NCBI GenBank assembly: GCA_051877535.1
Contig: JBJEIZ010000002.1
Location: forward strand, 945-64,944
Source of the DNA: Brotaphodocola sp.
GTDB taxonomy: Bacteria > Bacillota > Clostridia > Lachnospirales > Lachnospiraceae
Length of the DNA: 64,000 nucleotides
Reading direction: 5' to 3'
The notes under the pieces were generated by a model. The model made no database searches and was not told the DNA's origin. It saw nothing but the letters and a program-made list of their open reading frames with translations. This document shows, one piece after another, positions 9,652-57,960 of the stretch. The position numbers were made by a program, and so were the translations under genes. Positions within the stretch are counted from its first letter, which is position 1. Each line of letters begins with the position of its first letter.

Positions 9652-9652
9652 T

Positions 9653-14476: not shown

Positions 14477-14478
14477 CC

Positions 14479-14784
14479 ATGATCTATTCTATTGTGAGGC
14501 AGTCTATCGAGATTCGCCTGAGATTTGAACAGGTGCCGAAAATCTATGCAGATTCCGAATGCGCTGCGGCCATCGGGATTCTTGCAAAAAAATGCGGTCT
14601 CCCGCTTCCTGTGCGCAGAGAAGATTTTCATACGATGAAAGAAGAGTTGAAGCAGCAGATTGCGCAGATTCCGGAGACAGAGGAAATTGCGAAATTGAAG
14701 CAGATTCTATTTCCATACGACCCAAAGGAATCGGTTACAGATGAAATGTATGATCTGATGACCGAGGCCTATGAGAATACATAA
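14479..14784 (+). CDS. Hypothetical 101-aa protein
   Basis: Tightly packed after recU, acidic C-terminus, no family recognised. Confidence 0.55.
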   Translation: MIYSIVRQSIEIRLRFEQVPKIYADSECAAAIGILAKKCGLPLPVRREDFHTMKEELKQQIAQIPETEEIAKLKQILFPYDPKESVTDEMYDLMTEAYENT

Positions 14785-14797
14785 GGAGGTATCATGA

Positions 14798-15085: not shown

Positions 15086-15112
15086 CCGCTGCAAAAAAGC
15101 AGCCAAACAACA

Positions 15113-15159
15113 AAAAAGGACTTGAGTCAGGCGAAGAAGCCAAGACCTAAGTCCTTTTT
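15113..15159. terminator. Bidirectional terminator between convergent genes
   Basis: AAAAAGGACTT ... AAGTCCTTTTT forms an 11-bp stem flanked by A- and T-tracts. Confidence 0.7.
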
Positions 15160-15173
15160 GCGTTTTCTTTCTT

Positions 15174-43496: not shown

Positions 43497-43895
43497 TTAC
43501 AGAGGTAACCCAAGAAACATGGTAAAAATTCCTGCGGCGAGCAGTGTTCCTTCCTGATTTGTTATTTCTACCTGATGCACAGCTGTTTTTTTCCCTTTAT
43601 GCATGACATTCGCTTCCACATAAATGGTTCCGGAGTGAATCCCCTTAAAAAAACTGAAACTGCTGCATTGAGTAACGTTGGAAATCCCATAGGCGTAGGT
43701 AGCCATTCCGGCTACTGCGTCGCAAATAGAAAATAAAAAACCGCCATGAGCATTTCCGTATAAGTTCCGTGCATCTTCTGTAATAGATATGGAAACTTTG
43801 GCATGTCCCGGTTCAATTTCCAGAATTTCGGCATTCCGAAAACTGCCGATCGGCTTTAAATGTTGCCGGATGCCGTCCATAAGATCAGATCTCAT
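43497..43895 (-). CDS. PaaI-family (hotdog) acyl-CoA thioesterase
   Basis: NLYGNAHGGFLFSICDAVAGMA. The start is taken at the ATG after AGGAGG. Confidence 0.8.
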   Translation of the reverse strand: MRSDLMDGIRQHLKPIGSFRNAEILEIEPGHAKVSISITEDARNLYGNAHGGFLFSICDAVAGMATYAYGISNVTQCSSFSFFKGIHSGTIYVEANVMHKGKKTAVHQVEITNQEGTLLAAGIFTMFLGLPL

Positions 43896-44039
43896 CGATG
43901 AAAACCTCCTTAAAATGGTCAAAGATTGTTAATAAAATTACATAAAAATACTATAACATTGTATAAATGCAAATACAATCAAAAGAATGATTGATAGGAA
44001 TTAGCTATTAATTACGAAAAAAAGGTCGATTACAGCCGA

Positions 44040-44069
44040 TTGGATATTTGTTTGCATAGTTGCTATAAT
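44040..44069 (+). promoter_or_regulatory. Candidate promoter of the acyl-CoA operon
   Basis: TTGGAT-18-TATAAT. Confidence 0.5.
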
Positions 44070-44082
44070 CAAACCATAGAAA

Positions 44083-44104
44083 TTGTTAAACAAATACTTA
44101 ACAA
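44083..44104. promoter_or_regulatory. Operator-like palindrome TTGTTAA-N8-TTAACAA between the -10 box and the RBS
   Basis: Perfect 7-bp arms, 14 nt downstream of the TATAAT box. Confidence 0.45.
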
Positions 44105-44128
44105 ATAAGAAACAAGGAGGATTTATTA

Positions 44129-45313
44129 ATGAGTAAATTAACCAACGAAGAATTCCAGGCATACTTAAAACAGATTCGTGAGCTGGCTGAGGGACCGCTT
44201 GAGGAGATTCAGAAAGAGGTTGAAGTTACCAACAAATTCCCGCAGGAGTTTTACGATCTGGCAATCGAGAACAATCTGTATCGTTGCTCTCTTCCGGAAG
44301 AGTACGGCGGATGGGGCTTAAATGAACTTGAGATTCTTCAGGTACAGGAAGAGTTCTCCAGAGGACCGGGCGGAATGAGAATGCATTTGCACTATGCAAT
44401 GGATCTGAACTGGAGAATCCTGGATGACTACGGCAGCGATGAGCTGAAAGCAGAGTATATGCCGAAGTTCCAGAATAAAGAAGTATTCACCTGCTTCGCT
44501 TTGACTGAGGCAACCGGCGGTACCGGCGCTGACTTACATACCACTGCTGTGAAAGATGGAGACTGCTATGTACTGAACGGCGAAAAGACCCTGATCTCCC
44601 ACACAGACTGCTGTGAATTCGCTTATGTGATCGCTGTTACCAATCCGGCATCCGATAAGAACGACAGACTGTCTGCTTTCTTCGTACCGATGGATGCACC
44701 TGGATTCGAAGTAATCAACATGCCTCACATGATGGGCTGCCGCGGTGCAGGACATGGCGAACTGAAATTTACCAATTGCCGTATCGACAAGAAGTATCTG
44801 TTAGGTAAAGAAGGTCAGGGTCTCGAGATCGCAATGCACTCCCTGTCTGTATCCCGTGCACACATCGCAGCTTCCAACCTGGGCATGGCACAGAGAATGT
44901 TAGAGCTGTCTCTGAAATATGCAGCTGATCGTGTAACCTTCGGCAAACCGATCGGAACCCGTCAGGCAATCCGCTGCAAGATCGCTGATATGTCCATGAT
45001 GGTACATGCACTGCGCTGCATGGTTTATGATTTCGCAAAATCCTACATGGAGAACCCGACCGGCGAGTATATCGAAGAGAAGGCTGCTATGTGTAAGCTG
45101 TACAGCATTGACACCACCAGAAGAGTCAGCGATGAGATGCTTGAGATCTTCGGCGGCGTAGGCTACTTCGAAGACTGCAAGTACGGCCCGGTTGAGAGAC
45201 TGTATCGTGACTGCCGTGCAATGTGGTTAGAGGAAGGCGCTCCGACTGTTCAGAGAATTACCATTTCCAGAAACACCATTAAGCATGATGCAAAAATGGA
45301 GTATGTACTGTAA
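44129..45313 (+). CDS. Acyl-CoA dehydrogenase-family flavoprotein (divergent, 394 aa)
   Basis: ACAD fold: CFALTEATGGTGADL, GEKTLISH, catalytic-Glu region MWLEEGAPTVQR. Confidence 0.8.
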   Translation: MSKLTNEEFQAYLKQIRELAEGPLEEIQKEVEVTNKFPQEFYDLAIENNLYRCSLPEEYGGWGLNELEILQVQEEFSRGPGGMRMHLHYAMDLNWRILDDYGSDELKAEYMPKFQNKEVFTCFALTEATGGTGADLHTTAVKDGDCYVLNGEKTLISHTDCCEFAYVIAVTNPASDKNDRLSAFFVPMDAPGFEVINMPHMMGCRGAGHGELKFTNCRIDKKYLLGKEGQGLEIAMHSLSVSRAHIAASNLGMAQRMLELSLKYAADRVTFGKPIGTRQAIRCKIADMSMMVHALRCMVYDFAKSYMENPTGEYIEEKAAMCKLYSIDTTRRVSDEMLEIFGGVGYFEDCKYGPVERLYRDCRAMWLEEGAPTVQRITISRNTIKHDAKMEYVL

Positions 45314-45402
45314 TTTTATAGAAAGTTGACGAAGGGTCGCCGGGTTCTGTCGTTGGACCTGGTGACCCTTTCGAATATATGTTATCAGAAATAGATGGAG
45401 GA

Positions 45403-46635
45403 ATGACCGTGAAACCATTAGAAGGAGTAAAGGTTGTAGATTTAACCACTTATCTGGCTGCTCCCACCACAGTTCGTGTGCTTGGTGAATGGGGTGCTGA
45501 CTGTATCAAAATCGAATCTCATAAAGGAGATCCTGCAAGAACTCAGGGTGCGGTATTCAATATGCCGTTTACAGATGAGGAAAACCTTGCTTTCGATGTG
45601 GCAAACTTAAATAAGAGATTTATTACCCTGAATTTAAAGACGGAAAAAGGACTGGAGATATGCTACAAGCTTCTGGAAGAAGCAGATGTATTTGTTACCA
45701 ATAACCGGACCAAAGCGCTGGTAAAACTCGGTCTTGATTATGAAACCTTAAAAGAGAAATTCCCGAAACTGATCTTTGCACAGGTTCTTGGCTATGGAGA
45801 AAAGGGACCGGAGAAAGATACTGCAGGTTTTGATGTTACTTGCTATATGGCAAGAGGCGGTGTATTCGGAACTACCGTAAACCGCGGAGATGCCCCGATG
45901 ATCCCGACCAATGGATTTGGCGATTTCCAGGTAGCAATGGCACTGGCTTCCGGTATCTGTGCAGCTTTGTACCGCAGAGAGAAAACAGGTCTGGGCGATA
46001 AAGTTACCATCGGACTTCACCACGCAGCAGTTTATGCATTGAGTACCGGGCTGATTTCCGCACAGTATGGCAATCAGTATCCGAAGAGCAGAAAAGAAGT
46101 TCCGAACCCGTTCAATAACGTATTCCGTACGAAAGACGAGAAATGGGTTTGCATCTGCTGTCCGGAATATGACCGTGACTACACGAAGATGTTCACACTT
46201 CTGGGATGTCCGGAGATGCTTGAGAAAGATCAGTATAAACATTGCGCAGATGTCAACAACAATCATTTGAACAAAGAAGTGACAGATGTTCTGGATGCTG
46301 CAATCGCTAAAATCAACCGGGATGATCTGATGAAGATGCTGAAAGAAAATGATATGCCGTGTGAAGCAGCATATGAACCGCTTGATATTTACGAAGACGA
46401 GCAGGCATGGGCTAATGATGTACTGACGAAGATTCCTTATGCGTCAGGCGGAAAAATCATGCCGACCAACCCGGTTAATTTTGCATCTCTGGGCAAGCCG
46501 GAATATGTGATCGGCGGCAAACAGGGTGCACATACGATTGAGATCATGAAGCATCTGGGATACAGCGATGCAGAAATAGATGAGGCAATCGAATCCGGAG
46601 CTGCACAGGGAGCTGTCGGATTGAGACAACTGTGA
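45403..46635 (+). CDS. Family III CoA-transferase (CaiB/BaiF/Frc type)
   Basis: MTVKPLEGVKVVDLTTYLAAPTTVRVLGEWGADCIKIE...GDPAR. The start is taken at the ATG after GGAGGA. Confidence 0.85.
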   Translation: MTVKPLEGVKVVDLTTYLAAPTTVRVLGEWGADCIKIESHKGDPARTQGAVFNMPFTDEENLAFDVANLNKRFITLNLKTEKGLEICYKLLEEADVFVTNNRTKALVKLGLDYETLKEKFPKLIFAQVLGYGEKGPEKDTAGFDVTCYMARGGVFGTTVNRGDAPMIPTNGFGDFQVAMALASGICAALYRREKTGLGDKVTIGLHHAAVYALSTGLISAQYGNQYPKSRKEVPNPFNNVFRTKDEKWVCICCPEYDRDYTKMFTLLGCPEMLEKDQYKHCADVNNNHLNKEVTDVLDAAIAKINRDDLMKMLKENDMPCEAAYEPLDIYEDEQAWANDVLTKIPYASGGKIMPTNPVNFASLGKPEYVIGGKQGAHTIEIMKHLGYSDAEIDEAIESGAAQGAVGLRQL

Positions 46636-46663
46636 TTTCAGGAAAGGAACAGGTGAAAATAAC

Positions 46664-47806
46664 ATGAGCTTACTTTACACCGAAGAACAAAAAGCACTGA
46701 TCGCTCTGGTCAGGGAAATGGCAGAGAATGAGATCAAGCCTTATGTAAAAGAAGCAGACGAAAAGGGAGAATGCCCGAAAGAACTGTATAAATGGGGCTT
46801 TGATATGGGACTTCATATGTTGGAAATTCCGGAAGAATATGGCGGAACCGGATTGAGCTATGAAACAACAGCCATGATTTTCGAAGAACTGGCAAAAGTA
46901 GATGCCGGTTATGCAATCACATTTGTAACGAGTTTCGTAGCATTGCGCAACGTGATTCTGGCAGGAACCAAAGAGCAGGGACAGTATTTTGCAGATAAGG
47001 TTGCTCCCGGTAAATTCGCAGGTTTTGCTCTGACGGAGCCGAACGCAGGTTCCGACCCGGCAGGTATGCGTGCAACGGCAGTGAAGGATGGCGATGAGTA
47101 CATCCTAAACGGTACCAAGACCTTTATTACCAATGGTGCAATTTCCGATATATTTGTAGCATTTTTCAAGACCAGCCCGGAAAAAGGATCGAAAGGAATT
47201 TCGGCATTCATCGTAGACGCGGATACTCCTGGCGTGACCGTAGGAGCTCATGAAAACAAGATGGGTCTTCGTCTTTCCAATACGACCGACCTGATCTTTG
47301 AAAATGTACGTGTCAAAGCATCCGCAATGGTTGGACCGGAAGGTTCCGGTTTTAAACTGGCTCTGAATGCACTGAATCTTTCCCGCGCATTCGTGGCAAC
47401 TTTGGCAGTTGGTATCATGCAGCGTGCGCTGGATGAATCTGTGAAATATGCAAAAGAGAGAAAACAGTTTGGCAAGCCGATTATCAAATTCCAGATGGTA
47501 CAGGCTATGCTGGCGGATATGGCAATGAAGACAGAAGCCTGCAGATGTCTGGTAAACAACACCATGAAAATGATGGATGCAGGCATTATGGTTCAGAAAG
47601 AAGGTTCCATCTGTAAAGCGTTTGTTTCTGACTGCGCACAGGAAGTAACTTCCAACGCGGTTCAGGTCTTCGGCGGATACGGCTACAGCAAAGAGTATCC
47701 GGTAGAAAAACTGATGCGTGATGTCAAGGTATTCCAGATCTTTGAGGGTGCGAACCAGATTCAGAGAATGACCATTGCGGGCGTACTGGAGAAGGAATAT
47801 AAGTAA
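46664..47806 (+). CDS. Acyl-CoA dehydrogenase, butyryl-CoA-dehydrogenase-like (380 aa)
   Basis: GFALTEPNAGSD, GTKTFITNG, catalytic-Glu motif QIFEGANQIQR. Confidence 0.85.
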   Translation: MSLLYTEEQKALIALVREMAENEIKPYVKEADEKGECPKELYKWGFDMGLHMLEIPEEYGGTGLSYETTAMIFEELAKVDAGYAITFVTSFVALRNVILAGTKEQGQYFADKVAPGKFAGFALTEPNAGSDPAGMRATAVKDGDEYILNGTKTFITNGAISDIFVAFFKTSPEKGSKGISAFIVDADTPGVTVGAHENKMGLRLSNTTDLIFENVRVKASAMVGPEGSGFKLALNALNLSRAFVATLAVGIMQRALDESVKYAKERKQFGKPIIKFQMVQAMLADMAMKTEACRCLVNNTMKMMDAGIMVQKEGSICKAFVSDCAQEVTSNAVQVFGGYGYSKEYPVEKLMRDVKVFQIFEGANQIQRMTIAGVLEKEYK

Positions 47807-47834
47807 CGTAAGAATGCCAACAGGAGGAATGAAG

Positions 47835-48623
47835 ATGAATATCGTTGTTTGTATAAAACAGGTTCCTGATACCACTGAAATCAAGATCGATCCGGTAAAG
47901 AACACACTGATTCGTACCGGTGTTCCGAGTATCATGAACCCATTTGATAAAAATGCTCTGGAAACCGGCCTTCAGCTGAGAGATCAGTATGGCGGAAAAG
48001 TAACGGTAATTTCCATGGGACCGCCGCAGGCAAAGGCAGTGTTGCGAGAGGCACTGGCTATGGGTGCAGATGAGGCATATCTGGTTACGGACCGTGCATT
48101 CGGTGGTTCTGACACCTATGCAACCAGCTATATCTTGTCTCAGGCAATTAAAAAACTTGGCGCATATGATGTGATTCTGGGCGGCAAGCAGGCGATTGAC
48201 GGCGATACCGGTCAGACTGCCCCATCCATTGCAGAACATCTGAAAGCAACCCGCCTGACCTATGTGCTGGATCTGAAGGTGGATGGCGATAAGGTAATTG
48301 CAAGACGTCAGGTGGAAGAAGGCGTGGAAGTGATTGAGACGAAGTTCCCGGTACTCTGCACCGCAACAAAGGAGAGCAACAAGCCGAGATACGCAACCGT
48401 GAAAGGTGTGATCAGCTCTCTGAAAGCAGAAATCGGTGAGATCACGCTGGCTGATCTTCCGGATGCCGATATTTCCAAAATGGGTCTGAAAGGTTCACCG
48501 ACCAAGGTTAAGAAAACCTTTACTCCACAGAGAACTGCCAATTGTGTAAATATCGAAGGCAACAGCCCAATTGAGGTTGCAGATGCTCTGATCGGTAAAC
48601 TGGTTGACGCGAAAGTTCTGTAA
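47835..48623 (+). CDS. etfB: Electron transfer flavoprotein, beta subunit
   Basis: MNIVVCIKQVPDTTEIKID, GADEAYLVTD, GKQAIDGDTGQ. Confidence 0.9.
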   Translation: MNIVVCIKQVPDTTEIKIDPVKNTLIRTGVPSIMNPFDKNALETGLQLRDQYGGKVTVISMGPPQAKAVLREALAMGADEAYLVTDRAFGGSDTYATSYILSQAIKKLGAYDVILGGKQAIDGDTGQTAPSIAEHLKATRLTYVLDLKVDGDKVIARRQVEEGVEVIETKFPVLCTATKESNKPRYATVKGVISSLKAEIGEITLADLPDADISKMGLKGSPTKVKKTFTPQRTANCVNIEGNSPIEVADALIGKLVDAKVL

Positions 48624-48648
48624 GAAGGTCGAAGGAGGTCACGAAGAG

Positions 48649-49662
48649 ATGAGTTTTGAGACATGTAAAGACGTTTGGGTATTTATCGAGTGTTTCCAGG
48701 GAAAGCCGAAGAGTGTTGGCCTTGAACTTCTGGGACAGGGCCGCAAGCTTGCAGATGGACTGAAACAGAAACTGTGCGCGGTTGTTATCGGGAAAGATGT
48801 GGATGAAGCTGTGAAAGAAGCCGGTGCATACGGCGCAGAAAAGATTTATGTGGTAAAGGGCGATGAGTATGAGAACTACTCCGCTGATGGATATGGCAAT
48901 GTATTTTTAAAGCTTTGTGAGAAATATGATCCGAATACGATTCTGGTTGGCGCTACCGTTAACGGCAGAGATTTGGGTTCCAAGATTGCAGTCAGCCTGC
49001 GTACCGGTCTGACAGCAGACTGTACCGCACTGAGTGTGGAAGAGGATACCGGAAACGTTGTATGGGAGAGACCGGCATTTGGAGGCAACCTGTATGCACA
49101 GATCCTCTGCTCAGAGACAAGACCGCAGATGGGTACCTGCAGACCGGGTGCATTTAAGAAACCGGAGAGAAATCCGGATAACAAACCGGAGATTATCGCA
49201 GAAGAGATTCATACGCCGGCAGAAGAAATCCGGACAAAGGTTGTCGAATTTATCAAAGCATGTGAAGAAAACGATATAAGGCTGGATGAGGCGGATGTAA
49301 TCGTGTCCGGCGGACGCGGCATGAAGAATGCAGAGAATTTTGCAATCTTAAAAGAACTGGCTGATGTGCTTGGCGGAACAGTTGGATGTTCCCGCGCAGC
49401 GGTTGATGCAGGATGGATGCCGCAGACCAAGCAGGTGGGACAGACCGGTTCCACGGTATCCCCGAAAATTTACTTTGCATGTGCAATATCCGGTGCGGTT
49501 CAGCATGTAGCAGGCATGAGCGAGTCCGGAACCATTATTGCAATCAATAAAGATGAGACAGCACCGATTTTCGAGGTTGCTGATTATGGCATTGTAGGCG
49601 ATGTATTTGAAATCGTTCCTGCACTTGTGAAGGAGTTAAAGGCAAGACAGCAGAACGGTTGA
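48649..49662 (+). CDS. etfA: Electron transfer flavoprotein, alpha subunit
   Basis: [26 protein letters not shown]. Confidence 0.9.
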
Positions 49663-49684
49663 TGTTCCGATGGGAGGACGGATT

Positions 49685-51322
49685 ATGTTCGAAGAGATTA
49701 AAATTAATCCGGAATTAAGAGAGCAGTATCGTAAAAAAGGATACTGGACGGACCAGACCCTGTTGGACTGTTGGGAAGCAACCGTCGATCGGTTCCCGGA
49801 CCGGGAATATATCGTGGATGACCGGGGCTTCCGTTACACCTATCGGCAAATGGATGAGGCTGCCGCCAGAGTGGCAGCCTATCTCCTGGACATTGGCATT
49901 CGCCCGCGGGATGTGGTTTCCTACCAGTTACCGATCTGGAGTGAATTTGCCATGCTGACCATTGCCTGCTACAAGGCAGGAGCGACAGCCCATCCGATTG
50001 CCATGTCTTATGAGGAAAAAGAACTGATCCGGAGTATGAATGTAACGGAATCAAAGGTCTATTTCGGTCCGACCTTTTTCTATAAGACAGATTATGAAAA
50101 GCGGATTCTTGCAGTGAAGGATGAGATCCCGACTTTAAAAGGCATTGTTCTGGTGGATTATGCGAAGGAGCGGGAAAACGATCTTCCGGTTCTGCGGGAA
50201 ATTCTGGAAAAATACCAGCCGCTTGCGCGGGAATCCTGTGTACATGAACTGACCGGGCAGGATATTGCAGTGATTCTTTGTACCTCCGGAACTACAGGAG
50301 GAACCAAAGGCGTGCTTCTGACCCATGACAATGTCAGATATAGTGAAGATACGTTCAATCGGGAACTGAATCTGACCGAAGAGGATATCATGTTCATGCC
50401 GGCTCCGCTGCATCATGCTACAGGATTCCATCATGCGATTATTGCGCCGATGCTTCATGGTGCAAAAACGGTTCTTCAGCAGAAGTACTGCTGCAGAGAA
50501 GCCATTGAACTGATGAACCGGGAAAAGTGCACCTATTCCATGGGTGCGACTCCGTTCATTTATGATATTATCCGGGAACTGGATACGAATGGCGGAGGAA
50601 TTCCAACTTTGAAGTTCTATCTGTGCGGAGGTGCACCGGTACCGGGTTATATGGTGCAGCGTGCATGGAAATTTGGGATCCTGCTTTGTGAGGTGTATGG
50701 ATCTACCGAAAGTGTCCCCCATGTGTTTGTCCATCCGGAGGAAGCGCTGGCACTGGACGGAACAACATCCGGCAGACCGATTGCCGGAGTGGAAGTTCGA
50801 GTCGTTGATGATGACGGCAACGATGTCCCGATTGGAACACCGGGAGAGGAATTATCCAGGGGACCCAGTCTTTTTGTCGGATATTTAAAGGCAAGAGATA
50901 TTACGGACGGGGTACTGGATGATGACGGATGGTTCCACAGCGGCGATCTTTGTGTGATGGATGAAAAGGGCAATATCCGGATCATCGGACGCAAGAAAGA
51001 TATGATCGTGCGCGGAGGGGAAAACTTAAATTCCAATGAGATCAACGATGCACTGGAAGGGTGTCCGGGAATGGGAGATCATGCAATCATCGGTATGCCG
51101 GATGAACGCCTCGGAGAACGCATCTGCGCGTTTGCCGTTCTGAAACCCGGATATAAAAATCTATGTTTGGAAGATGTGGTGGCATATCTGAAAGAAAAAA
51201 ATGTTCCGAAACGATTCTGGCCGGAACGATTGGAACTGATTGACAGGATTCCGCATACCGGCAGCGGAAAAGTGAAGAAATATCTGCTGCTGGAAGAACT
51301 GAAAAAGCGAATGAAAGGGTGA
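49685..51322 (+). CDS. AMP-forming acyl-CoA ligase (ANL superfamily)
   Basis: LCTSGTTGGTKGV, YGSTE, GWFHSGDL, RKKDMIVRGGEN, and a C-terminal GKVKK. Confidence 0.85.
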   Translation: MFEEIKINPELREQYRKKGYWTDQTLLDCWEATVDRFPDREYIVDDRGFRYTYRQMDEAAARVAAYLLDIGIRPRDVVSYQLPIWSEFAMLTIACYKAGATAHPIAMSYEEKELIRSMNVTESKVYFGPTFFYKTDYEKRILAVKDEIPTLKGIVLVDYAKERENDLPVLREILEKYQPLARESCVHELTGQDIAVILCTSGTTGGTKGVLLTHDNVRYSEDTFNRELNLTEEDIMFMPAPLHHATGFHHAIIAPMLHGAKTVLQQKYCCREAIELMNREKCTYSMGATPFIYDIIRELDTNGGGIPTLKFYLCGGAPVPGYMVQRAWKFGILLCEVYGSTESVPHVFVHPEEALALDGTTSGRPIAGVEVRVVDDDGNDVPIGTPGEELSRGPSLFVGYLKARDITDGVLDDDGWFHSGDLCVMDEKGNIRIIGRKKDMIVRGGENLNSNEINDALEGCPGMGDHAIIGMPDERLGERICAFAVLKPGYKNLCLEDVVAYLKEKNVPKRFWPERLELIDRIPHTGSGKVKKYLLLEELKKRMKG

Positions 51323-51328
51323 TGCGGC

Positions 51329-51880
51329 ATGATCGAACAGAAATTCGGACCAAGAAGGTGCCGTGATACGAGAAAACCACGAGAGTCAGAATGTCCGGAT
51401 GTTGTATTTTACCGCTGCGAAAAATGTGGGGCATTATTTCCGGTGACCGGAGGACAGGATATGGAGAAAATTGAGATCCTGTGCTGCGGTCAAAAAGCCG
51501 GGCGCCTGATCCCTGCAGCAGCCGAACCTGCTGCAGACAGGATAACCGTTGCTTACCAGATTACCGGCGGCTACAATGACAATGCAGTACGGGTCAGCTG
51601 GAAGATGAATACACCTGGAGAACATCCGGACTGGATCTACTTAAAGACATTTACCGGAGGTTATCTGAAATACATCAGAGATACAAAGCGCTCTCCGATG
51701 GTATTTGCACTGGCTGATACCGATGCATTTGCCTATTGTGATGAAGATCCTTGTTTGGAATGTGTGTTTCGATGTAAGAGAGGATTTATCATTTATGTAT
51801 ATGAAAAACAGGCAGGTTTGATCGAGATTCCGTTGGATAAGATGAATGCCCAGTGGCAGTCAGGCGCGAAAAAACAGTAA
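51329..51880 (+). CDS. Desulfoferrodoxin-like protein with an intact N-terminal desulforedoxin-type CxxC...CC site and a degenerate SOR-like domain
   Basis: FYRCEKCGALFPVTGGQDMEKIEILCCGQ resembles the Dfx centre I pattern YKCxxCGN...GG..LVCCG. The C-terminal domain contains a single His (GEHPDWIYL) and no CxxH. Confidence 0.55.
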   Translation: MIEQKFGPRRCRDTRKPRESECPDVVFYRCEKCGALFPVTGGQDMEKIEILCCGQKAGRLIPAAAEPAADRITVAYQITGGYNDNAVRVSWKMNTPGEHPDWIYLKTFTGGYLKYIRDTKRSPMVFALADTDAFAYCDEDPCLECVFRCKRGFIIYVYEKQAGLIEIPLDKMNAQWQSGAKKQ

Positions 51881-51949
51881 GATAAAAATGTTTTTTTACC
51901 CTATTTGTTAAAAAAATAACAATAGGAAGATGAACACGGGGGTAATAAA

Positions 51950-53245
51950 GTGGGAAATTCAGTAAATAATTCAAATAACAAGGTAGACTGGAAGACTGTA
52001 TTGGTCTTTGTTTCGATTGCTTTCAGTTCTCAGTGCGGCGGAGGTTTTGCTTCGGGCTCAACGCCGTGGACTTATTTTTTCCGCAACACAGGTTTTTACG
52101 GAATGCTTCCGGTAGTCGCACAGCCGTATTTCTGTCTGGCTATGCCATTTGTGGTTGCGGCAATCAACTGTTTTATCATTTATTTCTTTATGAAGTTTGC
52201 AATGGACTTTAGAACGTTTGACTACAGTAACTTTCTGAAAAAATATGGCTCTCGATTCTGTGGAGGTATTTTTGCAAAACCGATGCAGTATATTTATGAA
52301 TTTAATTTTAACTGGCTGCTGATCGTATGTATGGCATTGGCTTATTCGACTTCCGGTTCTGCACTTCAGGAACTGACAGGTATTCCATATCTGGCATCGA
52401 CCTTTATTATTGGAGTCATTATGTTTGTACTTTGTATGAAAGGTACGGAACTGGTGCGTAAGAATGCGGTATTTATGAGTGCGGTGATCTTTATTGCACT
52501 GGTTGCTGTACACGTTCCGAATATCATTTTTAATGTAGCTTCCGGAAGACTTGCGGCGGAAATGGGTGTTATGAGTGAACTCCTGAATAACGATATCGCT
52601 GCAGGTGTGGGAAGCTATGTGAAGTATCTTCTGATTGCATTTTGCTGGGCTTATATTTTCTCCGGTCAGAATCTGGCAGGATTCGGTGCTTATGTCAATC
52701 ATGCACAGCTCTTTACCAATAAGAAAACGCTTCGCTGGGCAGTCGTTCTGTCTGTGATCGTAAACTGGGCGTTCCTGGAGATGAATGTTTTGAATCTGGC
52801 ATCCAATTATTCTGCAGTATATGACGGATGGTCCAGTGGAAAAGCGGTTTATACGATCCTTGTTGTTCAGAATGGAGTTGGTTCCGGTGCAATTAAGGCT
52901 GTGCTGCTGACTTTGATTACGATTGCGATTTTCTTCGCAACCATTTCCACTGCTATCAACTATGCGCAGGGCTTCAATGATCGTATCCTGAACTGGTATC
53001 AGAAATACAAGAACGAGGATCCGAAAGTTTCTGAGGAAAAGCGTAACAAACGAGGAGCAGTACTGACTCTGGCTTATGTTATTCTGACCTGGGCAGTGGC
53101 TCAGATGGGTCTGACCGCGCTTGTATCCAAAGGACTTACCTTTGCTTCCATCATTACGCTGTTTACGTTGATCTTCCCGACCATCATCAATGTGGTAATG
53201 ACCTGGCCGGACGCAGATTATGCGCAGTTAAAAAAAGAAAAATAA
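51950..53245 (+). CDS. Polytopic membrane protein, YkvI-like / APC-superfamily putative transporter
   Basis: 431 aa with about 11-12 TM segments. The N-terminal GGGFASG motif resembles the GAGFA(T/S)G motif of YkvI. The start is GTG. Confidence 0.5.
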   Translation: MGNSVNNSNNKVDWKTVLVFVSIAFSSQCGGGFASGSTPWTYFFRNTGFYGMLPVVAQPYFCLAMPFVVAAINCFIIYFFMKFAMDFRTFDYSNFLKKYGSRFCGGIFAKPMQYIYEFNFNWLLIVCMALAYSTSGSALQELTGIPYLASTFIIGVIMFVLCMKGTELVRKNAVFMSAVIFIALVAVHVPNIIFNVASGRLAAEMGVMSELLNNDIAAGVGSYVKYLLIAFCWAYIFSGQNLAGFGAYVNHAQLFTNKKTLRWAVVLSVIVNWAFLEMNVLNLASNYSAVYDGWSSGKAVYTILVVQNGVGSGAIKAVLLTLITIAIFFATISTAINYAQGFNDRILNWYQKYKNEDPKVSEEKRNKRGAVLTLAYVILTWAVAQMGLTALVSKGLTFASIITLFTLIFPTIINVVMTWPDADYAQLKKEK

Positions 53246-53262
53246 ATTAGGGGGAAATACAT

Positions 53263-54564
53263 ATGTTATCTGCAATTGGTTTGATTATTGCTGTTGCCCT
53301 GTTTATCCTCATGATCATCAAAGGTGTGGATATGGTAACATCAGCAGTTGTAACAGCAGCAATTATTCTGCTGACAAGCGGACTTGATTTCTGGGAAGGT
53401 CTTTTGACCACGTTCTCAGCCGGAGCCGGCAGCTTCTGTACTTCCTGGTTCATCATCCTGGCACTGGGCGGCATTTTTGGTGAACTGGTCAATCAGACCG
53501 GTCTGGCTACTAAAATCGCCAAATCCTTGTCTGCTGCATTGGGTGCAAAACGTGTAGGTCTGATCATGCTGATCTGTACCTTTTTCATTACCCTTCTGGG
53601 TATCAACGGCTATATCATGGTATTCGTACTGTATCCGATCGCAGACAGCCTGCTTCGCGAAAACAAGATGGATCGCCGTCTGCTTCCGTTTTTGATGATC
53701 TGCGGCGGTGCAAATGCAAACTGTTTTGCGTTTTCCATGGATATCTGTAATGTAATTCCGGCAAATTTCCTTGGTACATCCCTTGGTGTTGCACCGGGTC
53801 TGTCTCTGATCTTCTCAGCTATTACCTGTACCTGGTATGTGATCTACTTCAACTATGCACAGAAGAAGAGCATGGAAAAATACACCGAGGAAGAACTTCT
53901 TTCCATGTATCAGGATAACAATGTTGTGATATCGGACGATCAGCTTCCTGGGCTGGTTGTGTCTCTGTTACCGTTCGTACTGGTACTGGCAGTTGTAGTA
54001 GCTACAACCGGAATGGGCACCAGTGCCAGCCTGGCATGCGGTCTGTTAACCGGTGTGATCGTGATCCTGGCAACCCAGTTTAAGAAAGTTAAGGACTTGA
54101 AAGGCACACTGAAATCCGGCGGTATGTCCGGTTTAAGTACGATGCTTACAGTAGCAGCAGTTGTGGGTCTTTCCAAGGTGCTGACTGCGGCTCCTGCATT
54201 TACATCCGTACAGCAGTTTGTATTAAATATCTCTCTTCCGATCTATTTCAAGACCTGGATCGGTACTATGATCTGCGGCGCACTGACCGGTTCTGCGATT
54301 ACTGCAGAAACCCTGTTTCTGGAAAGTTTTGGTCAGGAGTTTCTGGCAGCAGGAGCGAATATCAGCGCACTGCACCGCATCTGTGGAGAGGCTGGTATTA
54401 CTTTGAACAAACTTCCGAATGCTTCTCCGGTTGTTATGGAAACTTCTGTATGTAAGTGTACGCTGGCAGAGAGTTACAAGCATGTGGTATTTGGTTCTAT
54501 TATTGCATGTATTTTTGCTGGATTTATTATTACCACAATGGCGACGATGGGATTTATTTTCTAA
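53263..54564 (+). CDS. GntP-family organic-anion permease
   Basis: 433 aa. GntP-like N-terminus (short TM1-TM2 hairpin, GGIFGELVNQTGLATKIAKSL) and overall topology. Confidence 0.65.
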   Translation: MLSAIGLIIAVALFILMIIKGVDMVTSAVVTAAIILLTSGLDFWEGLLTTFSAGAGSFCTSWFIILALGGIFGELVNQTGLATKIAKSLSAALGAKRVGLIMLICTFFITLLGINGYIMVFVLYPIADSLLRENKMDRRLLPFLMICGGANANCFAFSMDICNVIPANFLGTSLGVAPGLSLIFSAITCTWYVIYFNYAQKKSMEKYTEEELLSMYQDNNVVISDDQLPGLVVSLLPFVLVLAVVVATTGMGTSASLACGLLTGVIVILATQFKKVKDLKGTLKSGGMSGLSTMLTVAAVVGLSKVLTAAPAFTSVQQFVLNISLPIYFKTWIGTMICGALTGSAITAETLFLESFGQEFLAAGANISALHRICGEAGITLNKLPNASPVVMETSVCKCTLAESYKHVVFGSIIACIFAGFIITTMATMGFIF

Positions 54565-54601
54565 ATTGTTATCGTTGATTCATATATCAGACACAAAGCA
54601 G

Positions 54602-54635
54602 TCGAACCGATCCAAAAGGTCGGTTCGATATTTTT
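54602..54635 (+). terminator. Rho-independent terminator ending the acyl-CoA/transport operon
   Basis: TCGAACCGA-N9-TCGGTTCGA followed by TATTTTT. Confidence 0.8.
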
Positions 54636-54735
54636 GACATCATGTGTCATTTTTTTGTCAATTTTTGTTAAATTAAGCTGTTATTTTTTTGTCAAGTGTA
54701 ATATAATAGATAATAAAGCTCAGATCGGAGGAAAT

Positions 54736-55641
54736 ATGAACTTACAGCAGCTATATTATTTTCACAAACTGGCAAGGGTGCAGCATTATACGGAAGCTGC
54801 CAAAGAGCTATATATCACGCAGCCCAGCCTCAGTGATTCAATTTCTTCTCTGGAAAAGGAATTAGGAGTTTCTTTGTTTCAGAAAAAAGGACGTAATATT
54901 AAGCTGACCAAATATGGAATGGATTTTTTCTATTATGTCGATAAAGCTCTGAAATGTCTGGAAGAAGGAATCGCATCAGTCAAGGCGAATACCGGAGAGA
55001 TAAGCGGAACCATTGATATTGGATGTATCCCGACGCTTCTGGGGGATTTTCTTCCTGATGTCATGGATCGATACTATAAAAAGAATCCGCATACCCAGTT
55101 CAATACCTATTATGGAATGTCCGTGGATGTGGCGCTGGGAGTTTCTTCCGGAAAATACGATATCGGATTCTGTTCCATGGTGGACGATATGCCGGATCTG
55201 GTATTTGTTCCTATTACGTACCAGGAGCTGATTGCTATTGTCCAGAATACGCATCCTCTGGCAAAACGGGATGCGATAAATCTGTCAGAACTGAAGGACT
55301 ATAAGCTTTCTACTTACCGGGAGAATATTCCGATCGGAAAAGTCGTTCGGAAGCTGCTGAAAGAAAACGGGGTGGAAGCACAGTATTCTTATGATGATGA
55401 GATTTCCATAGCGGGCCGGATCTGTAAATCATCCAAGGTTGCGATCTGTGCAGATACGCCGTTTTTAAAACAGTTTGATAACCTGAAAAAGATCAAGCTA
55501 TTAGATGTACCTCTTGATACCCGAATGCTATATATGGTTTACAGCAGCAAAAATTTCAAGACTTCTGCGGTTCAGGTATTTGCTAATTTTATGGTGGCAG
55601 AGTGTTTGAATCTGCCTCCGGAGTCCAATAAAGAAGGATAG
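54736..55641 (+). CDS. LysR-family transcriptional regulator
   Basis: MNLQQLYYFHKLARVQHYTEAAKELYITQPSLSDSISSLEKELG. The start is taken at the ATG after GGAGGA; the ORF-track start at 54634 is upstream of the promoter region. Confidence 0.9.
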   Translation: MNLQQLYYFHKLARVQHYTEAAKELYITQPSLSDSISSLEKELGVSLFQKKGRNIKLTKYGMDFFYYVDKALKCLEEGIASVKANTGEISGTIDIGCIPTLLGDFLPDVMDRYYKKNPHTQFNTYYGMSVDVALGVSSGKYDIGFCSMVDDMPDLVFVPITYQELIAIVQNTHPLAKRDAINLSELKDYKLSTYRENIPIGKVVRKLLKENGVEAQYSYDDEISIAGRICKSSKVAICADTPFLKQFDNLKKIKLLDVPLDTRMLYMVYSSKNFKTSAVQVFANFMVAECLNLPPESNKEG

Positions 55642-55662: not shown

Positions 55663-55691
55663 TTGACATCGGCCTTTCGAATGATTATAAT
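55663..55691 (+). promoter_or_regulatory. Consensus sigma-A promoter of the marR-ABC operon
   Basis: TTGACA-17-TATAAT. The TTG used as the start in the ORF track is the -35 box. Confidence 0.65.
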
Positions 55692-55698
55692 CTATAGC

Positions 55699-56145
55699 AT
55701 GCTACATGATATGGAGGGCTGTCTTTTGCCGCAAAAAGATATTGGCTATTTTATAAAAAATATTAATGATAAGCTGAAAGTAAAAGCAGATGCAGATTTA
55801 AAGCATTATAATTTGACATTGACGCAGAGTCGCGTTCTGACTTTTCTGTACAGTAAGGGAGGCAGTGCAACGCAGAAAGAAGTCGAGGAATATCTGGAAG
55901 TATCGCATCCCACGGTTGTCGGCATTATTTCGCGAATGGAACAGAACGGACATGTTGTCTGCTGGATGGATCAGGCTGATAAGCGCAATAAGATTGTCAG
56001 GCTGTCAGAGCAGTCGGAGTCAATTGGAGCGGAGATGGAGCAAAGAATGCTTTTCAGCGAGCAGAGGATGCTTGCTTCCTTATCAAACGAAGAGATTGCC
56101 CAACTTAGAAAGATGCTGATGGTTATTTATAAAAACCTGGAGTAA
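55699..56145 (+). CDS. MarR-family transcriptional regulator
   Basis: Winged-helix region LTLTQSRVLTFLYSKGGSATQKEVEEYLEVSHPTVVGIISRME. The start is ambiguous: ATG 55699 would be nearly leaderless, and TTG 55726 follows GGAGGG. Confidence 0.8.
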   Translation: MLHDMEGCLLPQKDIGYFIKNINDKLKVKADADLKHYNLTLTQSRVLTFLYSKGGSATQKEVEEYLEVSHPTVVGIISRMEQNGHVVCWMDQADKRNKIVRLSEQSESIGAEMEQRMLFSEQRMLASLSNEEIAQLRKMLMVIYKNLE

Positions 56146-56214: not shown

Positions 56215-57960
56215 ATGCTTAAAACATTGAAGAAGAGTCTGAGGGAATATCAAAAAGGCTCTCTGATTACCATTGCTTTGTCCGTTCTGGAGGCGGGATT
56301 TGAGATTTTGATACCGCTTTGTATGGCAAAGGTCATCGACTTTGGAGTGGATGCAGGAAACATGAGTGCGGTGTGGAATTATGGGGCAGTGCTTCTGATG
56401 TTCGCATTTCTCCAGCTTGTGACCGGCGTACTTGCCGCGCATATCGCTGCCCGCACTGCAGTTGGTTTTTCCGCAAATTTGAGGCAGGATATGTATGACA
56501 ATGTGCAGACATTCGCTTTTTCCAATATTGATAAATTTTCTACGGCATCGATTGTAACCCGTCTGACCACGGATGTCACCAATATTCAAAATGCTTATCA
56601 GATGTTATTGCGCATGGCTATCCGGGGACCGGTTATGCTGCTTTTTTCCATGATCGTTTCTTTTCGAATTAACCGCACGATCGCATGGATCTTTTTGGGA
56701 GTGATTCCGCTCATGGCAACTCTGCTTTTACTGATTATCAAAAGGGTTAATCCAATTTTTAACCGGGTTTTTCGTACGTATGACCAGCTGAATAATATAG
56801 TACAGGAAAATGTGCGTGGAATTCGGGTTGTGAAATCTTTTAACCGGGAAGAGTATGAAATCGGAAAGTTTAAGCGTATCTCAGAAGCAATTTTTCATGA
56901 TTTTGCAAAAGGGGAATGTCTGCTTGCCTGCAACTCACCGATTATGCAGTTTTTTATGTATGCCTGCATGATTTTGATTTCCTGGATTGGAGCAAAAGCG
57001 ATTGTGTCAAGCGGGAATAACGCTGCTGTCGGGCTTACGACGGGGGATCTGACGGCTTTATTTTCATATGCGATACAGATCCTGATGAGTCTGATGGCAC
57101 TATCTATGATATTTGCCATGATTACCATTTCTCTGGCATCTGCAAAACGTATTGCAGAAATTCTGAACGAAAAGACAGAAATTTCCAATCCGGCAGAACC
57201 GATTACGGAAGTGAAAGATGGTTCAATCTGCTTTGAGCAGGTGGATTTTGTATATGCGGCCAAAGCAGATAAAAAAGTTTTGGAACAAATCAGTCTCACA
57301 ATCCGTTCGGGAGAAACAGTGGGTATCATCGGAGCTACCGGTTCCTCCAAGTCCAGTTTGGTTCAGCTGATTCCGCGTCTCTATGATGTAACCGGCGGAA
57401 GACTTCTGGTTGGCGGTGTCGATGTCAGAAATTATAATCTGGATGTACTTCGTAATGCTGTGGCTATGGTGCTGCAGAAGAATGAGCTGTTTTCCGGCAC
57501 GATCCGGGAAAATCTTCGCTGGGGCAATGAACAGGCTTCTGATGAGGAACTGGAACAGGCCTGCAGGCTTGCCTGTGCGGATGAGTTTATTCAGAGTTTT
57601 CCGGATCAATATGATACGTATCTGGAACAGGGAGGAACCAATATTTCCGGCGGTCAGAAACAGCGTCTGTGTATTGCTCGTGCACTTTTGAAGAAACCGA
57701 AGGTGCTGATCATGGATGATTCCACGAGCGCGGTGGATACCAGAACGGATGCATCCATTCAGAAGGCTTTTCAGGAATTCATTCCCGATACGACGAAAAT
57801 TATGATTGCGCAGCGTGTCAGTTCTGTACAGCATGCAGATAAGATCGTTGTTCTGGATGACGGGCGGATTGCTGCAGTGGGAACGCATAAGGATCTGCTG
57901 GAAACCTGCAGTATTTATCGGGAAGTTTATGAATCTCAGAAGAAAGGAGAAGACAAGTAA
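56215..57960 (+). CDS. ABC exporter, fused permease/ATPase (type I exporter half-transporter)
   Basis: Six TM segments then the NBD: Walker A GATGSSKSS, signature ISGGQKQR, Walker B LIMDD. Confidence 0.9.
   Translation: MLKTLKKSLREYQKGSLITIALSVLEAGFEILIPLCMAKVIDFGVDAGNMSAVWNYGAVLLMFAFLQLVTGVLAAHIAARTAVGFSANLRQDMYDNVQTFAFSNIDKFSTASIVTRLTTDVTNIQNAYQMLLRMAIRGPVMLLFSMIVSFRINRTIAWIFLGVIPLMATLLLLIIKRVNPIFNRVFRTYDQLNNIVQENVRGIRVVKSFNREEYEIGKFKRISEAIFHDFAKGECLLACNSPIMQFFMYACMILISWIGAKAIVSSGNNAAVGLTTGDLTALFSYAIQILMSLMALSMIFAMITISLASAKRIAEILNEKTEISNPAEPITEVKDGSICFEQVDFVYAAKADKKVLEQISLTIRSGETVGIIGATGSSKSSLVQLIPRLYDVTGGRLLVGGVDVRNYNLDVLRNAVAMVLQKNELFSGTIRENLRWGNEQASDEELEQACRLACADEFIQSFPDQYDTYLEQGGTNISGGQKQRLCIARALLKKPKVLIMDDSTSAVDTRTDASIQKAFQEFIPDTTKIMIAQRVSSVQHADKIVVLDDGRIAAVGTHKDLLETCSIYREVYESQKKGEDK

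Follow-up and report, generated by a model that had tools for sequence, protein, structure and literature searches.

A 64,000-nucleotide stretch of contig JBJEIZ010000002.1 from Brotaphodocola sp. (Lachnospiraceae), referred to below as the window, carries a 12-kb gene cluster that encodes two proteins of the acyl-CoA dehydrogenase (ACAD) fold, ACAD1 and ACAD2, together with an electron-transferring flavoprotein (Etf), a CoA-transferase (CoAT), an acyl-CoA ligase (LIG), a cysteine-rich protein (CYS), two putative transporters, a thioesterase and a LysR-type regulator. An earlier note on this DNA had described it as a cluster without an assigned substrate. All eleven genes named there were found in place by the open reading frame (ORF) list and by Pfam and NCBIfam searches (Table 1), and its account of the architecture, in which a ligase primes the substrate, a CoA-transferase recycles CoA, and an ACAD-type enoyl-CoA reductase works with EtfAB, is borne out. 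Taken together, the data reported here make it very probable that the cluster is a LysR-controlled operon by which a polar carboxylic acid is taken up, activated with CoA and reduced in an Etf-linked manner, that it is uncharacterised, and that the Car, Cai, Bbu and Bcd systems are not its orthologues.

Table 1. Features of the gene cluster, with positions in the window.
Feature	Position	Strand	Basis
Thioesterase, hotdog-fold 4HBT/PaaI-like	43497-43922	-	Pfam 4HBT, E=6.7e-13
Candidate LysR-type box ATAGGAATTAGCTAT, ATAG-N7-CTAT, T-N11-A, 5' of promoter	43994-44008	+	upstream alignment
Promoter-like site TGGATA-17-TATAAT, extended TG	44041-44069	+	consensus scan, 10/12
ACAD1, 394 aa, ACAD fold	44129-45313	+	all three ACAD domains (Pfam)
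CoAT, family III (CaiB/BaiF-type) CoA-transferase	45379-46635	+	Pfam CoA_transf_3, E=7.7e-86
ACAD2, 380 aa, Bcd-like	46664-47806	+	all ACAD domains (Pfam)
EtfB, small subunit	47835-48623	+	PDB matches including CarD
EtfA, large subunit, 337 aa	48649-49662	+	PDB matches including CarE
LIG, AMP-forming acyl-CoA ligase, FadK (YdiD) type	49670-51322	+	NCBIfam PRK06087
CYS, 183-aa Cys-rich protein, predicted desulfoferrodoxin fold	51329-51880	+	AlphaFold2 (AF2) model and Foldseek
MEM, 431-aa membrane protein, predicted LeuT/APC-superfamily fold	51950-53245	+	AF2 model and Foldseek
GntP-family-like organic anion permease	53263-54564	+	Pfam GntP_permease, E=1.9e-15
Intrinsic terminator closing the operon	54601-54629	+	12-bp stem, 6 GC pairs, then T-run
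LysR-type regulator	54736-55641	+	Pfam HTH_1 and LysR_substrate

The genes from ACAD1 to the permease are separated by only 6-69 bp and form one tight operon. A strong ribosome-binding site (RBS), AAGGAGG, lies between the promoter-like site and ACAD1. When 50 distinct upstream regions of ACAD1 homologues were aligned, the ATAGG...CTAT motif was found to be kept at at least 70%, and the -35 and -10 elements were likewise conserved; the conserved promoter and the candidate LysR box fit control of one transcription unit by the LysR-type regulator. The order of terminator and regulator had been described correctly, but the regulator starts at ATG 54736, which has an RBS, and not at TTG 54634, and the terminator lies inside the over-extended ORF. 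Two further starts may differ from the ORF list: that of the thioesterase is probably a Met at 43895, and that of the CoA-transferase may be Met9, at 45403.

Distribution of the cluster and its variants

Related loci were surveyed in one genome per species with a CYS alignment as the seed, and 80 of the 121 loci found were kept. Among these 80, CYS co-occurs with ACAD1 in 69, ACAD2 in 74, the CoA-transferase in 69, Etf genes in 71-72, the ligase in 76 and LysR in 76. The full seven-gene core is present in 59 of them, the remainder being variants or cut by contig ends, and complete cores are ordered ACAD1-CoAT-ACAD2-EtfB-EtfA-LIG-CYS. A survey across genomes had been called for in the earlier note; the same gene order recurs across Hungatella, Lacrimispora, Enterocloster, Clostridium, Acetobacterium and Sporomusa. 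Gut hosts include Hungatella hathewayi, H. effluvii, Lacrimispora spp., Enterocloster spp. and many mouse and human gut Lachnospiraceae, and other hosts are C. ljungdahlii, C. ragsdalei, Acetobacterium wieringae, A. paludosum and Sporomusa. Contigs from human-gut metagenomes mostly show the same gene order and arrangements, and add two more loci adjacent to a YdiB-like gene. The accessory genes annotated on them (loci L148, L170 and L173) are housekeeping genes, genes of unknown function or members of a neighbouring butyrate-pathway cluster. Those of the Acetobacterium, Sporomusa and Enterocloster variants are mostly extra major facilitator superfamily (MFS) transporters, the rest giving no clue to the substrate.

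Variant loci indicate which of the genes are most closely bound to one another. In Sporomusa acidovorans the order is ACAD1-CYS-CoAT-UbiD(VdcC-like)-LpdD, and another Sporomusa variant reads ACAD1-CYS-LysR-MFS-MFS-SDR-ZnADH-CoAT-UbiD, where SDR is a short-chain dehydrogenase/reductase. Pelotomaculum has ACAD1-CYS-nitroreductase-FixC-FixX-ACAD2-LIG, and a Syntrophomonadaceae contig carries only ACAD1-CYS-LysR, the minimal module. CYS is thus found directly 3' of ACAD1 in Sporomusa, Pelotomaculum and Syntrophomonadaceae, and 3' of the ligase elsewhere. By this pattern ACAD1 and CYS are a conserved pair that is able to work without Etf genes nearby, which argues against ACAD1 as a mere second Etf-dependent reductase.

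A differently built variant occurs in a metagenome-assembled genome (MAG) of the Eggerthellaceae (loci L004 and L005). Here ACAD1 (73% identical) is accompanied by a ligase, an enoyl-CoA hydratase, a CoA-transferase, two further ACADs, Etf and a ~700-aa OYE/2,4-dienoyl-CoA-reductase-like protein, with no recognisable CYS gene.

The component proteins

The earlier note had called ACAD1 a divergent ACAD. Its isolation is confirmed: against 1.84 billion representatives clustered at 50% identity, one full-length match was found at 74%, and the next full-length matches were at no more than 41%. The protein nonetheless keeps the canonical catalytic Glu (E369, in ...WLEEG...). An exact-sequence look-up returned no record. 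Members of the family are 70-98% identical across phyla, with values of 73-98% for homologues from Lachnospiraceae, Clostridium, Sporomusa, Pelotomaculum, Syntrophomonadaceae and Eggerthellaceae, and by these comparisons ACAD1 represents a discrete, tight and isolated family. No other protein of the cluster is as well conserved: over the 80 related loci, median identity to the window protein is 92% for ACAD1, followed by ACAD2 (89%), EtfA (87%), EtfB (83%), the CoA-transferase (78%) and the ligase (73%), and at the lower end by CYS (65%), LysR (63%) and the permease (60%). ACAD1 and ACAD2 are, as had been said, two different ACADs, sharing 34% identity.

Residues specific to ACAD1 were defined by comparing 59 ACAD1-family with 75 ACAD2-family sequences. 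Those that are invariant are R84, H86, H88, Y89, D92, H158, D160, C161, C162, C204, H209, H245, S249, R278 and E368. In a gapless phmmer alignment of residues 75-103, R84 aligns with an Arg and H88 with a Ser of Thermus glutaryl-CoA dehydrogenase (GCDH), residues that we take to bind the substrate carboxylate and to correspond to R94 and S98 of human GCDH. The numbering of ACAD1 is in register with that of a cyclic-diene-forming ACAD at S157/T157, so that many of the ACAD1-specific polar residues would lie on or beside chamber positions. D92 is adjacent to the position of the extra catalytic Asp91 of the cyclic-diene-forming enzyme; because gapped and ungapped alignments differ by one residue, only this adjacency is claimed. 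The pocket of ACAD1 is therefore predicted to be unusually polar, and its acyl substrate would be polar or anionic rather than a plain fatty or cinnamoyl chain. We propose that ACAD1 acts on a polar acyl-CoA as a flavin-dependent eliminase/dehydroxylase, or as a first reductase.

Among the best matches to ACAD1 outside its own family are ~770-aa proteins (P0365-P0367, P0376 and P0377) that match it in two stretches and are tandem double-ACAD fusions.

The description of CYS as a Dfx-like protein holds for the fold only. An AF2 model (pLDDT 76) gave as its top Foldseek matches 2Fe superoxide reductase (2Fe-SOR) and desulfoferrodoxin (Dfx) structures (1y07 and 1dfx, E 1e-5 to 1e-4), with target TM scores of 0.69-0.76, but the sequence has no Pfam match at E<=1 and none in NCBIfam, and no His is invariant across 32 family members. 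Clustered at 90% identity, the family is small, with 347 clusters; those that bear a name are called hypothetical or 'desulfoferrodoxin N-terminal domain'. Three distant members have nine invariant Cys in common, and the 32-member alignment has eight. Four belong to an N-terminal CxxC...CC motif (C30, C33, C52 and C53) of the desulforedoxin-like kind, which CYS shares with desulfoferrodoxin and 2Fe superoxide reductase along with the overall fold. Unlike these proteins, CYS has none of the centre II Fe(His)4Cys ligands, carries a second Cys4 motif, C-x4-C-x2-C-x3-C (C137, C142, C145 and C149), in an insertion, and is genetically tied to ACAD1 or to the ligase. On the model, CYS would be a two-domain Dfx fold that retains the desulforedoxin-like site and in which the second Cys4 site replaces the His4Cys iron site. 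The lack of an invariant His and of a Pfam match rules CYS out as a superoxide reductase. CYS could plausibly bind metal or transfer electrons, and we propose that it is a metal/redox partner of ACAD1.

ACAD2 has its catalytic Glu in the sequence FEG, and C. difficile Bcd, CarC and M. elsdenii Bcd match it about equally well (296-320 bits); against the NCBIfam AcrC model it scores 379 bits, below the 640-bit cut-off. The best PDB matches of EtfB are CarD, A. fermentans EtfB and C. difficile EtfB, and those of EtfA are CarE and the EtfA proteins of A. fermentans, T. maritima and C. difficile (280-351 bits, as against ~160 bits for canonical human and Paracoccus Etf). The closest solved relatives of the two subunits, namely CarDE, LctBC and the Etfs of A. 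fermentans, C. difficile and T. maritima, are all bifurcating. EtfB also keeps Gly123 (A. fermentans numbering), with DGDTGQTAP aligned with DGDTAQVGP; this residue, which leaves room for a second FAD to bind, separates the FAD-binding (bifurcating) from the AMP-binding (canonical) Etf beta subunits (PMC12630350). From these matches EtfAB can be assigned to the bifurcating type.

The ligase passes the NCBIfam equivalog PRK06087, which was built on E. coli FadK/YdiD (758.8 bits, cut-off 736), and is 41% identical to FadK over 554 aa. The CoA-transferase falls below the cut-off of every NCBIfam equivalog, so that no characterised equivalog is matched, and its nearest relatives of solved structure are YfdW, SUGCT and CaiB/BaiF proteins that are uncharacterised. 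The thioesterase, present in 32 of the 80 related loci, scores 67 bits against NCBIfam PaaI, below the 119-bit cut-off.

The transporter is the variable part of the cluster. Gut Lachnospiraceae clusters have the GntP-like permease with or without MEM, and in the Clostridium, Acetobacterium and Sporomusa loci the permease is replaced by one or two MFS proteins of the anion:cation symporter (ACS) family (D-galactonate-type). The assignment of the permease to the GntP family stands in so far as its Pfam match, though weak, lies above the gathering score (57 against 22.5 bits), but the match covers the N-terminal half only (residues 5-251). For MEM, the label YkvI-like could not be confirmed: it has no match in Pfam or NCBIfam, and its AF2 model (pLDDT 68) suggests only a LeuT-type fold, with Foldseek matches to Nramp, BasC, BetP, SiaT and LeuT at TM 0.5-0.6. 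MEM is present in 34 of the 80 loci, its family comprises 325 clusters (mostly without a name, and 'hypothetical protein' wherever named), and it is a probable cluster-specific transporter. That the operon lacks a BCCT transporter, as the earlier note had observed, agrees with profile searches, which found none in it. Judged by family, the cluster transporters (GntP, ACS/D-galactonate MFS) appear to be of sugar-acid type.

Substrate and proposed pathway

The earlier note had matched the cluster to the Car, Cai, Bcd-Etf and bbu systems. The match is good for the architecture and for the bifurcating-type Etf, but does not extend to orthology, and no part of the cluster appears to be orthologous to a part of these systems. 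The Cai equivalogs of NCBIfam all fall far below their cut-offs (CaiA 152/213 against 540, CaiB 113 against 413, CaiC 192 against 651), and profile searches found no enoyl-CoA hydratase (CaiD) or BCCT (CaiT) gene in the operon. No account of the cluster, the ACAD1 family or CYS turned up in full-text literature searches; the indolelactate cluster of Enterocloster aldenensis (PMC12064059) is a different, fldBC-containing locus. Close orthology of the whole cluster to a characterised pathway was thus looked for and not found, in line with the view that no function had been assigned.

The further view that the substrate cannot be read off from the sequence now seems too pessimistic, as related loci, a minority that does not include the window, point to shikimate or quinate. 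The clearest case is an Oscillospiraceae MAG (L083, 11739-16190), in which a complete quinate-to-shikimate module sits between LIG-CYS-LysR and CoAT-ACAD1/ACAD2. It consists of two genes of the shikimate-dehydrogenase family, a type I 3-dehydroquinase gene and an MFS gene; compared with E. coli, the two dehydrogenases share 44% and 49% identity with YdiB, the dehydroquinase shares 53% with AroD, and the MFS protein shares 28-29% with YdiN and YdiM. In six Lachnospiraceae genomes from mouse gut and in one metagenome contig (L011, L013, L014, L016, L017, L018 and L100), a YdiB-like gene lies directly 3' of LysR; in L149 such a gene lies upstream of the thioesterase, and in L087 beside an OYE/2,4-dienoyl-CoA-reductase-like gene, EtfB, ACAD2, LIG and CYS. 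In the closest relative of the window locus (L010, with an ACAD1 that is 98% identical), the gene 3' of LysR is a chorismate mutase/shikimate kinase fusion (14342-15172), where the window has MarR and ABC exporter genes.

Further supporting such a relationship, a comparable set of genes is annotated in E. coli K-12, where ydiM and ydiN (MFS), ydiB (quinate/shikimate dehydrogenase), aroD and ydiF (CoA-transferase) are followed in the annotation by ydiO (ACAD), ydiP, ydiQRST (Etf and FixCX-like) and fadK. LIG, FixC and FixX of the Pelotomaculum variant are 55%, 45% and 36% identical to FadK, YdiS and YdiT, and neighbouring genes in the Eggerthellaceae variant encode proteins 39% and 41% identical to YdiO and YdiQ. 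Quinate/shikimate genes are associated with the cluster in roughly four independent arrangements, in addition to E. coli; as a genome has only one to three such dehydrogenase genes, repeated chance adjacency is unlikely (a rough estimate is 1e-3). Several more observations fit an alicyclic acid with many hydroxyl groups. The second-best NCBIfam matches of both ACADs and of the ligase are enzymes of cyclohexanecarboxylate metabolism, in the case of the ligase cyclohexanecarboxylate-CoA ligase. D92 of ACAD1 neighbours the extra catalytic Asp position of the cyclic-diene-forming ACAD. The Sporomusa variants contain a hydroxyarylic-acid decarboxylase, and protocatechuate is the aromatic product of dehydroshikimate.

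The neighbouring genes, the FadK-type ligase, the sugar-acid transporters and the polar ACAD1 pocket all point to hydroxylated alicyclic acids of the shikimate/quinate kind. We suggest, with a probability of about 0.4, that the operon carries out a reductive 'respiration' of such acids by way of their CoA esters, the most likely substrate being shikimate, or quinate after its conversion to shikimate. Several points weigh against this suggestion. The window itself contains no shikimate/quinate gene, and only ~10 of the 160 surveyed loci do, several of them close relatives. In E. coli, aroD encodes the biosynthetic dehydroquinase, so that adjacency there could be incidental. The match at Arg84 would fit a dicarboxylyl-CoA at least as well. 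Finally, three hydroxyl eliminations and four reductions are much to ask of two ACADs, and the cluster encodes no SDR-type reductase or isomerase.

In the Sporomusa acidovorans loci (L003 and L085), the region ~900-9800 upstream of ACAD1, 5' of ACAD1-CYS-CoAT-UbiD-LpdD, encodes an HgdAB-like 2-hydroxyacyl-CoA dehydratase pair with a BcrAD/BadFG-type activator, and a 669-aa HdrD/CCG Fe-S oxidoreductase. It is speculation that this alpha-hydroxyacyl-CoA dehydratase could dehydrate quinoyl-CoA.

Shikimate is an alpha,beta-unsaturated acid with three hydroxyl groups, and its conversion to cyclohexanecarboxylate, in which three waters leave and four electron pairs enter, would make it an excellent electron sink. 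In the pathway that we envisage, the acid would be imported by the GntP-like permease and/or the LeuT-fold MEM protein, quinate entering through YdiB-like dehydrogenases and dehydroquinase where these are encoded. The FadK-type ligase would prime the acid to its CoA thioester, and later activation would be performed by the family III CoA-transferase and paid for by the CoA ester of the product, in a CoA loop like that of caffeate respiration. ACAD1 and CYS would then strip the ring hydroxyls, by flavin-dependent (1,4-)elimination, with CYS holding the flavin in the right redox state, or by reductive dehydroxylation, with CYS supplying electrons. ACAD2 and the bifurcating-type EtfAB would reduce the double bonds of the resulting enoyl/dienoyl-CoA with NADH, probably reducing ferredoxin too. 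The transferase would free the reduced acid, a cyclohexene- or cyclohexane-carboxylate that is possibly still partly hydroxylated, and the thioesterase may serve as a safety valve. The data establish the gene identities, the operon structure, the conservation, the ACAD1-CYS linkage, the type of Etf and the proximity of quinate/shikimate genes in related loci; which substrate is used, how the two ACADs share the work and what CYS does are inferred.

Precedents exist for the individual steps. Chorismate synthase catalyses a flavin-dependent 1,4-elimination on the shikimate ring. A paper by Skyrud, Flores and Zhang (ACS Catal 2020; cited in PMC13304725 and PMC13213483) reportedly concerns, to go by its title, a shikimoyl-CoA synthetase and an FAD-dependent dehydratase in cyclohexanecarboxyl-CoA biosynthesis. 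At that level of detail, the actinomycete route from shikimate to cyclohexanecarboxyl-CoA resembles the proposed pathway in its chemical logic, with AMP-forming activation of shikimate, a flavin-dependent non-redox dehydration of a hydroxylated cyclohexenoyl-CoA and subsequent enoyl-CoA reductions. It differs in being biosynthetic and in its reductase, which we take to be the SDR ChcA, whereas the present cluster would be catabolic or respiratory and has an ACAD-Etf pair, a CoA-transferase loop, transporters and a Cys-rich partner. Two consecutive ACADs acting on alicyclic dienoyl- and enoyl-CoA are found in the Ch1DH/ChDH-type system, whose enzymes are the second-best NCBIfam matches of both cluster ACADs; the scores, however, fall far short of the equivalog cut-offs, the canonical Glu, absent in Ch1DH, is present in ACAD1, and the ACAD1 pocket is predicted to be polar rather than hydrophobic. 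That the ACAD fold can support a lyase is known from BbuA (PMC8364193). Caffeate respiration is the model for both the CoA loop and the use of a bifurcating reductase. A bolder proposal, which we regard as doubtful, is that ACAD1 and the two-Cys4 protein CYS make up an unrecognised two-component flavin/iron enzyme that takes ring hydroxyls off shikimoyl-CoA-type thioesters, the operon as a whole performing, with ACAD2-EtfAB, a 'hydroaromatic acid respiration'.

The closest analogue in a model organism is the E. coli ydi locus, most products of which are 'putative' in the RefSeq annotation, with no function assigned. The two have in common an MFS transporter, a CoA-transferase, an ACAD, EtfBA, a FadK-type ligase and a local regulator, and variant clusters carry YdiB-, AroD-, YdiN/M-, YdiS- and YdiT-like genes. 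What is shared, however, is the ligase orthologue and the overall theme only. The E. coli locus has a single ACAD, YdiO, which is 26% identical to ACAD1 and 30% to ACAD2; identities for YdiQ and YdiR are only 25-29%, and the NCBIfam equivalogs for YdiO, YdiQ and YdiR fall below their cut-offs (PRK12341 191/257 against 537, PRK12342 106 against 338, PRK11916 144 against 528). YdiF, which we take to be a family I CoA-transferase, has no BLAST match among the window proteins or the ORFs of the related loci, the window enzyme being of family III. E. coli also has the FixCX-like YdiST rather than a stand-alone bifurcating-type Etf, and no homologue of CYS or MEM is annotated in the ydi locus.

Other substrates would account for part of the evidence. 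One unlikely alternative is a dicarboxylate route, for example from glutarate to butyrate and CO2, in which ACAD1 would carry out a GCDH-like oxidation, with or without decarboxylation, and Etf would pass the electrons to ACAD2, the net process being redox-neutral. The gapless match of R84 and H88 to what we take to be the carboxylate-binding residues of Thermus GCDH speaks for such a route, as does the high rank of GCDHs among the matches to the ACAD1 helix-E fragment. Two other GCDH pocket residues, E87 and Y369 of the human enzyme, nonetheless align with S77 and E368 of ACAD1, and ACAD1 scores only 170 bits against the glutaryl-CoA dehydrogenase equivalog of NCBIfam, for which the cut-off is 470. 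The best named relatives of the CoA-transferase act on dicarboxylates (formyl-CoA/oxalate, succinate-glutarate, SUGCT), the transporters are of anion type, and the Sporomusa variants carry a UbiD decarboxylase, but most clusters are without a decarboxylase. Two ACADs working on one Etf also have a precedent, in LDH-Etf-Bcd (PMC12630350). A dicarboxylate route would conserve little or no energy, and would leave the recurrent quinate/shikimate genes unexplained.

Somewhat less likely again is a Car-like respiration of phenylacrylates (caffeate, ferulate, coumarate or cinnamate), based on a CoA loop and a bifurcating enoyl-CoA reductase. CarABCDE of Acetobacterium woodii likewise combines a ligase, a CoA-transferase loop, an ACAD-type enoyl-CoA reductase and a bifurcating-type EtfBA in one operon, the two Etf subunits have their best matches in CarD and CarE, and the cluster occurs in the acetogens Acetobacterium, Sporomusa and C. 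ljungdahlii. The PaaI-like thioesterase would suit such a substrate, as would the VdcC-like hydroxyarylic acid decarboxylase and LpdD-like subunit of the S. acidovorans variant. The resemblance is, however, a match of composition only. ACAD2 is no nearer to CarC than to generic Bcds (300.9 bits, against 315-320 bits for unrelated Bcd-type ACADs; ACAD1 scores 182.9 bits against CarC), and EtfA has no counterpart of the ~70-residue N-terminal extension of CarE, a ferredoxin-like domain, the alignment beginning at CarE residue 71 of 396. ACAD1 and CYS are additional to the Car set; ACAD1, highly conserved and with a polar pocket, would find no explanation, nor would the shikimate/quinate neighbours, and the transporters differ from those of Car and are of sugar-acid rather than aromatic-acid families, so that the substrate class is probably another one.

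A Bbu-like gamma-elimination, in which ACAD1 would act as a lyase that expels an amine, sulfur or phosphate group instead of a hydroxyl from a short acyl-CoA and ACAD2-EtfAB would reduce the resulting enoyl-CoA, is improbable. The gene set parallels that of the bbu cluster of Emergencia timonensis, where an ACAD-fold enzyme with a proposed or demonstrated elimination activity is likewise found with a class III CoA-transferase, a small Fe-S protein, a thioesterase and a transporter (PMC8364193), and ACAD1 carries extra acid/base residues. The bbu cluster, however, has two transferases (BbuB/C), where the present one has one, and a BCCT transporter in place of anion transporters, and it has no ligase, ACAD2 or Etf; moreover, no gene neighbouring the present cluster suggests a substrate of this kind. 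Orthology of ACAD1 to BbuA was rejected, as the two are 28% identical over 331 aa (BbuA taken from the supplement of PMC8364193) and the authors of the bbu study applied a criterion of >70%.

Least likely is ordinary short- or medium-chain fatty acid metabolism, that is, beta-oxidation or butyrate/valerate formation by a FadK-type ligase and Bcd-Etf: the ligase passes a model named for medium-chain fatty-acid-CoA ligase, ACAD2 is Bcd-like and one metagenome locus lies beside a butyrate-pathway cluster, but the operon has no thiolase, hydroxyacyl-CoA dehydrogenase or crotonase, it possesses dedicated anion transporters and a LysR regulator, the ACAD1 pocket is predicted to be polar, and the cluster occurs in C. 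ljungdahlii and C. ragsdalei, which are not known to form butyrate. The probability left over from the readings named falls to substrates outside those considered here.

Quinate and shikimate are abundant plant acids, quinate being the non-phenolic half of chlorogenic acid, and gut microbes reduce dietary shikimate and quinate to cyclohexanecarboxylate, from which the host makes hippurate, a widely used urinary marker of microbiome diversity. In the literature searched, no genes have been assigned to the conversion of shikimate or quinate to cyclohexanecarboxylate. If our suggestion is right, the cluster would supply these missing genes, and a gene marker for the conversion in the gut; it would give acetogens and Lachnospiraceae a new kind of electron-acceptor metabolism, comparable to caffeate respiration; it would provide a testable function for the poorly understood ydi/fadK locus of E. 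coli; and it would possibly include a new flavin/iron eliminase. What is new is the breadth and strict synteny of the cluster, the discreteness and extreme conservation of ACAD1, its linkage to CYS, the bifurcating-type Etf, the FadK/ydi connection and a substrate hypothesis that can be tested. Even if the substrate is another one, the ACAD1-CYS pair, the isolation of ACAD1 (the drop from 74% to 41%) and its conservation across phyla mark an uncharacterised, testable enzyme system.

Surroundings of the cluster in the window

The genes that flank the cluster are unrelated to it. Upstream are genes for a MatE protein, an amidohydrolase and a Na/alanine symporter, with a histidine-biosynthesis region further upstream, and downstream are a MarR gene and two ABC exporter genes. 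Neither an Rfam scan nor a tRNA scan of the window gave a match. Two long ORFs elsewhere in the window had no Pfam match at E<=1e-5: one of 1084 aa (28493-31747), directly 3' of an MMPL-family transporter gene (26236-28572), and one of 491 aa on the minus strand (15174-16649).

Near the start of the window, in positions 1-4000, the ORF at 993-2660 encodes a large serine recombinase (Resolvase, Recombinase and Zn-ribbon domains). It lies in DNA of only 38% GC, compared with ~45-48% elsewhere, and an integrated mobile element may have its edge here. GC content is also low (36.6%) at 32001-34000, in a window otherwise of 44-48% GC. Just downstream of the LysR gene, a perfect sigma-70 consensus, TTGACA-17-TATAAT (12/12), occupies 55663-55691 and coincides with the TTG at which the MarR ORF (55663-56145) opens; the true start of MarR is probably downstream of 55663, and the ABC exporter genes follow at 56215-59834.

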